Below are positions 42,896 through 46,916 of a stretch of 64,000 nucleotides of DNA, piece after piece (position 1 is the stretch's first letter; each line of letters opens with the position of its first letter). The DNA lies in the NCBI GenBank assembly GCA_965218795.1, contig OZ244653.1:4512001-4576000 (forward strand), read 5' to 3'. A program made the position numbers and the translations under genes. The notes beneath the pieces were generated by a model. That model worked only from the letters and a program-made list of their open reading frames with translations. It did not search any database and was not told where the DNA came from. Origin of the DNA: a bacterium. Its GTDB lineage: Bacteria; UBA8248; JACPRG01; G963555815.

Positions 42896-43037
42896 AAGGC
42901 CCGCTGAGCCCCGATCCCCCTTCCTTTGCATCCACCGGGGGCGTTCCCGTGACAGGATGCGCCTTGGCCAAAACCCACCCCAATCGGAAGGCCGTCCCTC
43001 TGGGGAAGCCGTCGGGTTCCATTCGTTCGATTGCGCC

Positions 43038-46000
43038 CTAGAACCGGATTCCGAGATTGATCTGGCCGGCGTATTCCCGCTCATCCGAACCCGGGCCGTC
43101 CGCCGTCGCCTCGACGCCGAGCGAGAAGCGGCCCCGGCGCCAGACCCCGCCCAGGCCCAGCAGAACACGGGTTCTCTCGGACTCCGACCTGAGCTTCTCT
43201 CCCGATACCTCGACGACCGTCTCCCCGCCCCGGAGCGTCCGCTCCACGTCCACCGAACCCCGGAGGGAGAACGACCCGCCGTCCCGGACGCGACCGGTCT
43301 CCGCCGCCAAACCGACGACGCCCTTGAGTTGCTTCGGATCGGTGAGCTTGACCCGCGAGTTCACCGCGTCGGTGAACCTGTCCATGGAAATCCCCGAACG
43401 AACCAGCCGCGCCCGAGGCGTCAGACTCATTCTCGTGCCCAGCGCGATGCGCCGACCCGCCTCGATGCTCAGGGAATGAGCAAGCGCGCCGACGTCCCCC
43501 TTCAGCCGGCCCCGCTTGTCCGAGGAGAGGTCCACCTTGTAGCCGGTCACCGAGAGGCGGCCATCGACATAATAGCCGCTCGCGCCGCCCCAGGACACGC
43601 CCAACCCCGCGCCGAAGCCCTTCGCGTCGACATCCCCGCCCCCGGTCGGCGAGGAAACCTCCGCCGAAGCCTGAACATGCCGCACCGAGACCGTGCCGGT
43701 GATGTCCTTGTTCCAGGGAAACGCGACGTCCACCCCGGCTTCCGCCGCGAGGCGCCTGAAGTCGTACGCCGCGCCGACACTCGCCTCCCCGGACTTGTAA
43801 CTCCCCTTCCCGCCCGAGAGCCGCACCCAGACCGGCGAGCCGCCCAGCCGCAGCCGCTCCCCGGCGGAGCCGCCCAGCCGGAAGACCCCCGGCAGGGACT
43901 CGTAATCCGCCGCGAGGCGCTTGAAGTCGTACGCACTCCTCTGATCGGACCCGTACCTTCTCCTTCCGCCCGAGAGCCGCGCCCCGTCCCGACCCCCGCC
44001 CGTCAGACCGAGCAGCAGACCCGGAAGGGCCTCGTACACGGCCGCGCGCGGCGCGTAGACCTCGATGATGCGGACAGGTGTTTTTGGCTTTTCTGTTGGC
44101 TCTTCCGGCGTTTCCGGTTTGGGGGTTTCGGTGAAGTCGTCCGCGGAGAAATCCCGATCGGCGATGACTCCGGCGGCCCTCTGACTGACGACCCATGCGC
44201 CCGTCGAGCGGTCGACGGTGACGCCCTCGGCCTGGATGATTAAGACGTCCCGCGCCCCGTTCGGGGCCGTGAGGCCGGTGACGCCCGCCGCGCCGTCGTG
44301 GAGCTTCACGTTGTTGACCACGATCGTGGTCTCGCCCCCGTCGTTCACGATCCAGTCGTCGCCGAAGACAGCCGCCACCCGGCGGCCGTCGAGATTCATC
44401 GAGACATGGAGCCTGGGCTTGAGCGGCTCTCCATTTTCGACGGGCGTGTCTCCCGTGGCGAGAATCGCGATGCCCGACGCCGCGCCGACGCTCCCCTTCG
44501 GCCCGATGACGACCCGGCCCCCGCCGGCGAGCCAGACCCCCGCCCCCGCGCCCGTGCCGCCCATCACCGCGCCGTTCACCGTGACCGTCTGCCTCCGGTA
44601 GCCGTCCGCGTCCATACCCGCGGCGCGTATCACTTCTCCCTGGGCGTTGAGGGCGCCCACCCGGACGCCGATCGCGTTCTCCCCGCCGGCGCTGATCGTT
44701 CCCCCGACCGTGACCGCGATGGTCCTAGAGTCCATCGTACCGTAATGATAGGCCACGACCCCGTGGGCGTTGTCGCCCGCCGTGGTGATGGCGTTATCGC
44801 CTGCCGTCGTAATGGTGATGTCGCCGTCGCCGTCGCCTTGATGAACGCCATAGATGCCGTAGGAATACGCGCCCGCCGTCGTGATGGAGCCGCCCTGAAC
44901 GGAGATATCGATGTTTCCGCTGCCTGGGTGATAGCCTAAGACGCCGTGGGCAATAGCGCCAAGACCCAAAGTGATGCCCGTGCTTTCCGTCGTGATGGCG
45001 GCGTCTTGAACGGAGATGCCGATGTCGCCGTTGCCTTGATGTATGCCAGAGACACCGTGGGACTGGGTGCCCTCGGTCGTGATGCTGCCGCCTTGAACGT
45101 CGATGGTGACGCGGCCCGAGCCGCCTCCATCACGCGCACCCAGGATGCCGGGGGAGTTCAAGGAGAGTGAGTCGTAGTCGTTCATCGTCGTGATGGCGAC
45201 GTTTCGAACAACTATATTGACATTGTTGTCCGTGCCGCTGCCGAAATGCGTGGCATCGACGCCCGTTGCACCCGTCATGACGCTGCCCCCCCGGACGTTG
45301 ACGGTGAGAGAACCGGCGCCTTCATGAAGGCCTCTGACGCCGGTGGAGGGACCTGCCGTGCTGATGGCGCTGTCTCGAACGTTGATGGCGAGGGCGCCGT
45401 TGCCTCGATGCCGGCCAAAGACGCTGTGAGCACTACTTGAATCAGGTGATGGCGACGCGATGGCGCTGTCTCGAACGTTGATGGTGAGGGCGCCGTCGCC
45501 TCGATGCTGGCCATTGACGCCAACGGCTCCAGTCGCCTCGATTCTGCCGCCTTGAATGCCGATGGTGACGTCGCCGTCGCGTGTGCCGTCGGCGGCGCTT
45601 CCGTGAAGTGCGAAGACCCCGTGGGACCCATTCGTCGTGATGGTGGGGTCCTGAACGTCGATGACGATATCAGCCGTGGAACCGGCGGACTCTATGCACG
45701 AGACCCGCTGTCCGGCCGCGGGCGCGCCTCCTCTGCACGGCTCGGGGGTCTGGGCCCGCGCCTCTCCGACACTGAGAGTGAACGCGGCGGCCACCGTCAG
45801 GGCGATGGCGCCCATCCGCGCCCGCGCCCCGCCTCTTGCTCTGGAGTCTGGAGTCTGGAGTCTGGAGTCTGGAGTCTGGAGTCTGAAGTCTGAAGTCTGA
45901 AGTCTGAAGTCTGAAGTCTGAAGTCTGAAGTCTGAAGTCTGAAGTCTGAAGTCTGAAGTCTGAAGTCTGAAGTCTGAAGTCTGAAGTCTGAAGTCTGAAG

Positions 46001-46162
46001 TCTGAAGTCTGAAGTCTGAAGTCTGAAGTCTGAAGTCTGAAGTCTGAAGTCTGAAGTCTGAAGTCTGAAGTCTGAAGTCTGAAGTCTGAAGTCTGAAGTC
46101 TGAAGTCTGGATCGTACCACATTCATCAAGTGCAGACAAGCCCATGACGGACGAGCAATCAT
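43038..46162 (-). CDS. Autotransporter (type Va) adhesin-like protein with a repeat-containing leader; phase-variable candidate
   Basis: Signal h/c region ending ARA-Q, G/T/I-rich beta-helix-like passenger, PE/PK linker, beta-barrel with terminal GINLGIRF-type motif (QINLGIRF); the RBS-linked ATG at 46162 is out of frame with the body at the current repeat number. Confidence 0.85.
45840..46111 (-). repeat. Heptanucleotide tandem array: 32x CTTCAGA + 6x CTCCAGA on the coding strand, plus a partial unit
   Basis: + strand TCTGGAG x6 (45840-45881), TCTGAAG x32 (45882-46105), TCTGGA. Confidence 0.95.
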
Positions 46163-46377
46163 TTGGAATATCTCCTCTTCCTTCACTGTCAACACCACTG
46201 CCAACACTCTCCCCTCATTCCTGTCCAATCGACAAGGTGCGCCTCGGAGGGTTCGATGAATCGTAGCGGAATTGTACCGCCAAAAGTGAACGGAATTTTT
46301 AAATGCTTTCTGGGCGAAATACCGCTTGCGCCCGATGCTTTAGTCGAGGGCCTGTTGCTTCACTCCCCGAATGCTCA

Positions 46378-46841
46378 TGGATTCCTGCCTGCGCAGGAAT
46401 GACAGGCAGGTCCCTGTCGAGCTCCGACGAGCCTGGCCCCCCGTGTGTCTCAGGCGGGGGCATTCCCGCAGGCCACGCCCCACTTGTCATTCCCGCGGAA
46501 GCGGGAATCCACAGGACCGCCCAATCCGGCCATGTTCAGGCCGGAGCGGATCCCTCGCGCGGGCCAGCCCACGGCTTCTGGTTCTCAACACCCCGCCTGG
46601 ATTCCCGCTTTCGCGGGAATGACGAACAAGGCTCCCGCGCAACAGCCTGTCATCCCCGCCCTCGAATGTCCCAATCGGGGGCAGGAATGACCGAGAGCCC
46701 GCCCCTGCATGGTTTCAGCAGGGGGCGCGCCAATCCCAAAGTCATTCATCAAGGATGGTGTCCCTGGAATCCAACTGATTTCATCCCCGATTCATCGCCA
46801 TTTCAGGCCCCATTCTGGATTTCCGCCTGCGCGGGAATGAC
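46378..46841. repeat. Cluster of 26-bp REP/dRS3-like palindromes (GTCATTCCCGC-N4-GCGGGAATCCA family)
   Basis: Copies at 46378-46403, 46486-46511, 46598-46623 and 46816-46841, plus an interrupted copy near 46649-46691, in mixed orientation. Confidence 0.85.
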
Positions 46842-46887
46842 GAAATGGGGGCGGGGTACATGGTGACGCCGCGCTTCCACTGAAGCG

Positions 46888-46916
46888 TTGACCGTCCATC
46901 CCGATTCCGGTAAGGT
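46888..46916 (+). promoter_or_regulatory. Putative sigma70 promoter
   Basis: TTGACC-N17-TAAGGT about 120 nt upstream of the LLM gene. Confidence 0.5.

Follow-up and report, generated by a model that had tools for sequence, protein, structure and literature searches.

Most of the repeat-based contingency loci described so far belong to pathogens adapted to a host, for example Haemophilus, Neisseria, Moraxella, Helicobacter and Campylobacter. The opa genes of Neisseria carry a (CTCTT)n tract in the signal-peptide coding region, with the start codon upstream and none past the tract. In Moraxella catarrhalis uspA2, an (AGAT)n tract lies in the 5' untranslated region (UTR) of an autotransporter gene and its number affects expression. 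Here we analyze a long heptanucleotide (heptamer) repeat ahead of an autotransporter gene in a 64,000-nucleotide (nt) stretch of a genome of the bacterial lineage UBA8248 (assembly GCA_965218795.1, contig OZ244653.1, positions 4,512,001 to 4,576,000; this whole stretch is called the window). The tract of this gene, which we term locus C, is probably a contingency repeat at a surface-protein gene, so that a small lineage would follow the same logic as those pathogens.

Three further repeat systems bear on the comparison. In Haemophilus influenzae hmw1A and hmw2A, an (ATCTTTC)n tract is transcribed within the 5' UTR, its copy number varies, and expression is graded, inversely to repeat number; the repeats occupy positions -175 to -116 relative to the ATG and form, together with a G-rich arm, a 122-nt hairpin that RNase III cuts (PMC12721329). 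Heptamer direct repeats of TAACTGA in Beggiatoaceae, Cyanobacteria and Bacteroidetes are intergenic and mostly located a few nt upstream of start codons, reach up to 43 copies in some taxa, and have been proposed to act post-transcriptionally (PMC4679880). Intergenic repeats that grade adhesin-gene expression, (TAAA)n at Neisseria meningitidis nadA and a T-tract at Helicobacter pylori sabA, have been described as well (PMC2791445, PMC4081817). Literature searches found no paper that places heptamer repeats at autotransporter genes of organisms other than the known pathogens, and the papers listed for the exact repeat strings were all unrelated, with eukaryotic or primer sequences.

The gene at locus C is an autotransporter, a surface protein. 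We favour the reading, with a probability of roughly 0.55, that the repeat ahead of it is a promoter-proximal, transcribed, non-coding leader that grades its expression. The tract is placed between a -10-like element and a Shine-Dalgarno (SD) sequence with its start codon, and at the same time downstream of an SD-bearing ATG; a change in its length could alter expression. The elements of the locus, with reference to paralogues A, B and D elsewhere in the genome, are as follows.

43038..45815, reverse strand: autotransporter open reading frame (ORF), intact, 925 codons from ATG 45815, stop included.
45753..45815, reverse strand: signal-peptide h- and c-regions, MGAIALTVAAAFTLSVGEARA, then Q, delimited by eye.
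45797..45799, reverse strand: TGA that ends the frame of ATG 46162, 13 nt past ATG 45815.
45813..45815, reverse strand: ATG (MGAIAL...), the first remaining in-frame start past the tract, poorly spaced at 16 nt from AAGAGG.
45824..45825, reverse strand: point at which the alignment shows 8 nt of A, B and D to be missing; this deletion, specific to locus C, took the GTG start of the family and the TGA overlapping it.
45832..45837, reverse strand: SD-like AAGAGG, 2 nt past the last unit, duplex -6.8 kcal/mol.
45840..46105, reverse strand: heptamer tract of 266 nt and 38.0 exact units, made up of 32 x CTTCAGA and, after these, 6 x CTCCAGA.
46106..46111, reverse strand: degenerate first unit tccaga, its first base being the last T of the -10-like hexamer.
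46111..46139, reverse strand: sigma-70-like promoter candidate, -35 TTGTCT (46139-46134), 17-nt spacer, TG-extended -10 TACGAT (46116-46111), 8/12 matches.
46120..46122, reverse strand: ATG (MWYDP...), third frame, stop at 45670, no SD, within the promoter-like spacer.
46143..46145, reverse strand: ATG (MGLSAL...), specific to locus C, in frame with the autotransporter at 38 units, no SD.
46160..46176, reverse strand: AGGAG (46176-46172) and ATG 46162 at a spacing of 9 nt, opening a 19-codon leader frame into the tract.

A preliminary description of this DNA had reported a 38-copy tract of 32 CTTCAGA and 6 CTCCAGA units, and this is confirmed by the sequence and by Tandem Repeats Finder (TRF; 45840-46109, period 7, 38.6 copies, 99% matches, score 498). 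A perfect heptamer array of 266 nt is far beyond chance. Its account of the reading frames is equally sound. ATG 46162 is the sole start with a good SD sequence, its SD/anti-SD duplex of -9.0 kcal/mol being the best in the region (ATG 46145, +0.6; ATG 46122, -2.4); its frame, MIARPSWACLHLMNVVRSR followed by (LQTSDFR)n, is out of frame at 38 units and runs to the stop at 45797. ATG 46145, without a ribosome-binding site, is the one in frame now and opens a 1035-residue ORF (43038..46145), and ATG 46122 enters the third frame. The unit of 7 nt is not a multiple of three, and all three sense-direction frames of CTTCAGA/CTCCAGA are free of stops; the two frames that do not belong to the autotransporter close 43 nt (45797) and 170 nt (45670) past the tract. 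Since 46162 and 45815 are 347 nt apart, with a remainder of 2 on division by 3, multiples of three units (0, 36, 39) would bring ATG 46162 into frame with the signal peptide, ...ARGGARARMGAIALTVAAAFTLSVGEARA and then Q, as had been stated.

The source genome (G000) is a single closed contig of 5.17 Mb with 60.5% G+C, and among the genomes of its class it is the one covered by our whole-genome repeat scan. TRF found just four heptamer arrays with at least five copies in it, and an exact search found five with at least three copies; exact arrays of at least four copies numbered zero at periods 4, 5, 6 and 9, and one at period 8. All four long heptamer tracts are located upstream of large surface-protein genes, three of which are locus C and its paralogues A and B. 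In coordinates of the contig (G000:C1), the copies and the fourth array are as follows.

687756-690550: paralogue A, split over 3 frames; its tract, 690416-690496, has 11 units.
1414362-1414452: tract of paralogue B, 12-13 units, all CTCCAGA.
2762994-2765419: paralogue D, split over 5 frames.
3970903-3972120: paralogue E, a fragment.
4597559-4597579: F, a decayed remnant of the leader, about 21 kb past the window end; GTG replaces ATG 46162, followed by 3 units, AAGAAG and GTGA.
2932914-2933000, reverse strand: fourth array, (AAGCCTC)12 (L191), outside the window, about 330 nt upstream of the gene for a 1772-residue protein.

A, B and C have a common leader ahead of the tract, and D has a copy of this leader with 2.4 units, so that unit numbers run from 2.4 in D through 11 in A and 12-13 in B to 38 in C. 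The genes of B and C are intact; with A and D split and E a fragment, these three copies are decaying. Remnant F has a truncated signal peptide and no passenger, and its upstream start is in frame with that signal peptide. The protein downstream of the fourth array matches Calx-beta in three stretches and Big_12 in two, and its C-terminus weakly matches a beta-barrel. The frame of an ATG with an SD (-10.3 kcal/mol), 70 nt upstream of this array, runs into the repeat. As a separate observation, the octamer GTAAAGGA (coding strand) occurs three times (L023 3055-3078) about 60 nt upstream of the leader ATG of D; this stretch is deleted in C and present as a single copy in B.

The preliminary description had placed the tract inside the signal-peptide coding sequence of a gene that is currently OFF. 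The paralogues do not support this. Past the tract, A, B and D continue with (C)AAGAGG-cggggc-GTG-AGY..., with an SD duplex of -6.8 kcal/mol and a GTG in frame with the signal peptide, giving MSAR(G/A)RMGAI...; an SD sequence and an in-frame GTG also follow the tract in remnant F. Gene calls in other assemblies point the same way, as P0006, P0025, P0026 and P0027 have the N-terminus MSARALAV..., which corresponds to the GTG start past the tract. P0004 and P0024, near-identical to C, were called from the equivalent of ATG 45815. P0028, an allele of the MSARALAV... gene, has the common leader and about 3 units and reads MWYGPDSRLQSKRRGVSAR..., and P0029, an allele of B that by hand count shares 79 of 81 residues with it across the signal peptide and N-terminus, has about 4 units; both were called from the MWY ATG, the equivalent of 46122. 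The layout becomes compact in P0028 (about 3 units) and D (2.4): -10 element, about 27 nt, SD, 6 nt, GTG. By our own judgement, the equivalent of ATG 46162 is used as the start in none of eight gene calls from other assemblies. Because an SD and GTG come after the tract in A, B and D, homologues are called from MSAR..., and a promoter-like pair precedes the tract, as it also does in a sister family discussed below, the tract probably lies outside the coding sequence. A tract of the Opa type would stand between the sole usable start and the mature protein, whereas here the GTG of A, B and D and ATG 45815 of C follow it.

On the other side of the tract, the promoter candidate TTGTCT-17-TACGAT ends 5 nt ahead of the first full unit, so that transcription should start in the first unit. 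Located downstream of ATG 46162, it recurs in conserved form in paralogues A, B and D. In the mechanism that we propose, this sigma-70-type promoter would drive transcription from the first unit, and the tract, as a hypermutable simple-sequence repeat, would fill almost the whole 5' untranslated leader up to AAGAGG. Translation would start past the tract; A, B and D would use the GTG (MSAR...), and locus C would use ATG 45815. Slippage would then alter the unit number, with it the length of the leader, and with that the level of expression in steps, leaving the protein unchanged. Such a device would be a rheostat of the Haemophilus HMW1/HMW2 kind; at this locus a longer leader might either raise or lower expression. 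The suggestion of a dimmer in place of a binary switch comes close to this. The activity of the promoter, which stays a candidate, the transcription of the tract and the effect of its length are all predictions from sequence. At locus C itself the 8-nt deletion removed the GTG, and translation may therefore be poor there whatever the length of the tract.

Folding predictions describe the leader of locus C as nearly unstructured (z = +5.07, with 100 of 100 shuffles folding at least as well). A hairpin of the HMW type between the tract and a G-rich spacer was considered and dropped, as neither the minimum-free-energy nor the centroid folds of the leader pair the two. Rfam gave no match over 45500-46900 at E values up to 1. 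Upstream of the leader, the window contains palindromic elements similar to repetitive extragenic palindromes (attcctgc...gcaggaat; 46379-46400 and 46303-46866), and similar ones flank paralogue A; the ORFs listed at these elements translate to ...WIPACAGMT... and look spurious.

Comparable arrays occur elsewhere in the bacterial class, of which we sampled 51 species genomes. (GCCTCAA)n is present in five of them, at 10 or more loci with 7-29 units, four of the loci being upstream of homologues of the window autotransporter and another ahead of a cadherin-like protein. Octamer arrays stand directly ahead of the starts of autotransporter homologues, with units CCGACTCA (x36, x36 and x13), CCGCCTCA (x12) and CGACTCAC (x35). 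The octamer loci of the sister family (L198, L199, L200 and L201 in G011, L202 in G028) have the array between TTGnCn-17-CATACT and a good SD with ATG or GTG; at L198, AAAGGAG-6-ATG follows the array. The longest array seen, (CCGCAGA)52 (L204 209-572, in G028), lies about 340 nt upstream of an autotransporter homologue starting MNMTRSRFLRFLN..., and (AACTCCG)n arrays were found in G045 and G026. All eight unit types are G-poor on the sense strand, with 1-2 G each.

Uniform tests were applied to 22 loci. This set excludes D and F, whose exact units are too few, L185, which lies at a contig end, and duplicates. A promoter pair was counted if it had at least 8/12 matches, A2 and T6 in the -10, a spacer of 16-18 nt and a -10 ending 3-10 nt ahead of the array. 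Such a pair adjoins the array at 14 of the 22 loci, compared with 110 of 8800 random positions (1.25%) in the same sequences, and at 8 of 11 families by our own grouping (binomial 9.5e-14). As the promoter-like pair adjoins the arrays in this way, the arrays begin approximately where transcription should start.

Two near-identical loci in G045, a genome of another family within the class, L192 (1505-1644) and L193, are among the exceptions without a tract-adjacent pair. They read GGGAGG-7-ATG, a 50-nt leader, (AACTCCG)20 and then a signal peptide, ahead of a secreted protein with fn3 domains. No further ATG, GTG or TTG intervenes ahead of the signal peptide, and the tract must therefore be coding. 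At 20 units it is out of frame, and ATTAGATAG right after it closes two of the three frames. A distant homologue of the G045 protein has about 40 coding residues ahead of its h-region. That the loci with an obligatorily coding tract lack an adjacent promoter-like pair is an exception that fits the favoured reading of the other arrays as untranslated leaders.

Several observations weigh against that reading. One relative, G045, has what appears from its sequence to be a truly coding heptamer tract and a frameshift switch. A promoter consensus scan of 45600-46700 at a threshold of 9/12 gave no site, the candidate reaching 8/12, and the tract is not predicted to fold onto the G-rich spacer in the manner of HMW. 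The start past the tract is weakest at locus C itself, where the GTG is deleted and ATG 45815 is 16 nt from the SD. ATG 46162, in contrast, has the best SD in the region (-9.0 kcal/mol); a start codon is retained in 5/5 copies (as GTG in remnant F), and the 57-nt frame that follows it is free of stops and indels in all of them. SD-bearing leader ORFs that enter the array within 120 nt are found at 14 of the 22 loci against 1334 of 4400 controls (30.3%; p = 0.0013), or in 8 of 11 families (p = 0.0046). None of the eight unit types contains a stop in the sense direction, and the autotransporter homologues of the sister family are extended N-terminally, with 40-60 residues ahead of the h-region.

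Many of these points would be expected of a frameshift switch, in which ATG 46162 is the start used, part of an extended n-region is encoded by the tract and the unit number modulo 3 sets the gene ON or OFF, with 38 units being OFF. Under such a model the good SD and the conserved, open 19-codon frame would be accounted for, the frame past the tract would be translated (in A, B, C and F it is Arg-rich and has no stop ahead of the h-region), and the 8-nt deletion at locus C would be harmless. The extensions in the sister family and in the homologue of the G045 protein would be further cases of coding residues ahead of an h-region. Counted from the equivalent of ATG 46162, A is in frame, B is shifted into one wrong frame and C into the other. 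We retain this explanation because G045 has two loci with a necessarily coding heptamer tract, two of the three frames being closed by ATTAGATAG, and we judge it unlikely for locus C. An SD with an in-frame GTG past the tract in A, B, D, F and the short-tract alleles speaks against it, as does a promoter-like pair between ATG 46162 and the tract, a layout strongly enriched in the class. None of the eight gene calls elsewhere uses this start, and by frame arithmetic the short-tract forms P0028, P0029 and D would all be fixed in a wrong frame.

The leader peptide itself gives little that speaks for translation. Third positions of the 19-codon frame have G or C in 8 of 18 cases (hand count), low for a genome of 60.5% G+C, and the changes in the paralogue alignment are spread about equally over the codon positions (5:6:7, hand count). 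The pN/pS values in the three frames of the leader are 0.67, 0.77 and 0.81, that of the ATG 46162 frame being no lower than the other two; as the positive control, the signal-peptide region, gave 1.42, this test is powerless. We also considered homology between the 19-residue leader peptide and an N-terminal motif of the sister family (xRWLN against xRLMN, residues 10-14). A BLASTP alignment spans the motif, but 30 to 2000 of 2000 shuffles score as well, and the candidate was rejected. This lack of significant likeness, and the lack of an ESPR match in Pfam at E values up to 10, both argue against a coding tract.

The start codons of the class suggest another way in which the upstream frame could matter. 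A TGA overlaps the start at all five sister-family loci (L198 ATGA, L199 GTGA, L200 GTGA, L201 ATGA, L202 GTGA), in A, B, D and F of the source genome, and in alleles P0028 and P0029; it is lost in C. An ORF from ATG 46162 might be translated through the tract, with the unit number modulo 3 setting its coupling to the autotransporter start. Termination at the overlapping ATGA or GTGA would lead to reinitiation (ON), an in-frame fusion would give an extended protein, and an out-of-frame run-on would occlude the start (OFF); at locus C, the stop 13 nt past ATG 45815 might still permit reinitiation. The enrichment of SD-bearing leader ORFs (14/22 against 30.3%) and the stop-free units would suit such an arrangement. 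By our reading of the nine loci with an adjacent start, the upstream frame stops at RTGA in four (D, L198, L199, L201), is fused in three (A, L200, L202), stops just past the start in C and reads through only in B.

We nevertheless regard this coupling as doubtful. Transcription starting at the tract would leave the upstream start off the main mRNA. The RTGA count is not independent, as A at +4 is common after starts and the genes are homologous, and a single read-through among nine where three are expected is not significant (about 0.14 by our own arithmetic). The overlap of stop and start is lost at locus C itself, and a literature search, made without translational-coupling terms, found no precedent. 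In its class-wide form, which we likewise consider improbable, G-poor arrays of 7- or 8-nt units (up to 52 of them) extending from the transcription start to the ribosome-binding site would combine with a coupled upstream ORF into a three-state switch that leaves the protein sequence unchanged. The window gene would in that case not be OFF but coupled or weakly coupled, and the leader ORF with its overlapping stop and start would be a new kind of translational switch, directly testable.

Whichever way unit number acts, it appears to vary. All four long heptamer tracts of the genome are at surface-protein genes, and unit numbers differ among the paralogues and, judging from translated N-termini, between assemblies at homologous loci (about 4 in P0029, against 13 in B), which is why we regard the tract as a probable contingency repeat. 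To this extent the contingency locus proposed in the preliminary description stands, and its frameshift mechanism does not find support. Two scans of metagenomes for the leader patterns gave no stretch in either, and the same-genus genome G001 had no homologue with the window gene as query.

The arrays could instead be a neutral by-product, expanding at mutational hotspots at transcription starts without regulatory use, with C decaying and its 38 units reflecting relaxed constraint. Counting full-length paralogues and fragments together, three of five are disrupted (A over 3 frames, D into 5 pieces, E being a fragment), locus C lacks the GTG of the family, and its orthologues P0004 and P0024 end prematurely, ahead of the beta-barrel. 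Stretches of (CTTCAGA)n with at least 5 units are also common in many unrelated phyla (at least 119 stretches), and among the 80 loci listed, 69 of 83 tracts lie outside long ORFs, in mixed positions relative to genes. Against this, the tracts are tied to genes for surface or secreted proteins (4/4 in the source genome; autotransporter, cadherin-like and fn3 proteins in relatives), they occupy a fixed place beside a promoter-like pair, the purity of the array (99%) argues for ongoing slippage, and the 925-codon ORF of C is intact. On balance we think a purely neutral origin quite unlikely. The idea of (CTTCAGA)n as a general 5'-UTR element across phyla was dropped, since neighbour orientations at the 80 loci are mixed; in this crude neighbour analysis the commonest left neighbour is the 3' end of a sense gene (45/80 loci). 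The hosts include Pirellulaceae, Dialister, Nostoc, Acidobacteriota, Mucilaginibacter and a Woesearchaeota archaeon, and several genomes have many copies. The same heptamer family occurs in frame inside genes, as internal QTSDFR(L/P) repeats in the unrelated proteins P0007, P0011, P0012 and P0017 (Fe-S oxidoreductase, glycoside hydrolase, GlnE-like and TonB-dependent receptor).

A tract of 266 nt exceeds short reads, and either its length of 38 units or the tract itself could in principle stem from mis-assembly. We consider this very improbable, given that the genome is one closed 5.17-Mb contig, three paralogous loci have the same kind of tract at different lengths, and relatives with closed genomes carry tracts of 20-52 units.

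The protein of locus C has a beta-barrel (PF03797, E = 2.6e-24, about 43107-43832; residues 772-1013 of P0001) and a signal peptide recognized by eye, with an Arg-rich n-region, the h-region AIALTVAAAFTLSV and ARA followed by Q. A role as adhesin is suggested by its family. A sequence search against solved structures in the PDB returned no match. Window positions 43002-45126 are 99.6% identical to paralogue B at 1.41 Mb (7 mismatches and 2 gaps in 2126 nt), and in a comparison of the first 230 codons of B and C, identity over the first 83 residues is only 59%; the near-identity of the 3' 2.1 kb points to recent gene conversion between B and C. The passenger-coding region contains imperfect tandem repeats of 30 nt x 2.2 (43819-43880) and 24 nt x 2.8 (44766-44835). 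The genes surrounding locus C are ordinary metabolic ones.

The part most worth following up is the lineage-wide, promoter-anchored layout, in which arrays take a fixed promoter-side place ahead of autotransporter, cadherin-like, Calx-beta and fn3 surface proteins. These arrays comprise at least five unit types of 7 or 8 nt and have between 8 and 52 copies. If they are transcribed leaders, they would be a second, independent system for studying how repeat length in the 5' UTR sets expression, and they could show whether transcription drives repeat instability, as recently proposed for HMW.

Set beside the described systems, the window family resembles opa in a unit that is not a multiple of three, in the location of the tract at the 5' ends of related surface-protein genes and in a unit count particular to each paralogue. 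It differs in having an SD with GTG or ATG after the tract and a promoter-like pair before it; a heptamer case like opa seems to exist in the relative G045. The uspA2 tract differs in its tetranucleotide unit, in serving a trimeric autotransporter and in belonging to a human pathogen. The TAACTGA repeats are of a single unit type, mostly in 2-6 copies, and are scattered over about 170 loci whose functions vary (PMC4679880), whereas the arrays of the class comprise several unit types at few loci, are long, and accompany surface-protein genes. Compared with nadA and sabA, the window tract is downstream of the -10 element. The closest system is hmw1A/hmw2A, with which the locus shares a heptamer of variable count upstream of the start of paralogous adhesin-type genes. 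Unlike the HMW repeats, the window tract begins approximately at the predicted transcription start and abuts the SD, and it is predicted to be unstructured, with no pairing to a G-rich spacer, where HMW has a long hairpin. HMW uses two-partner secretion, and the window protein is a classical autotransporter.

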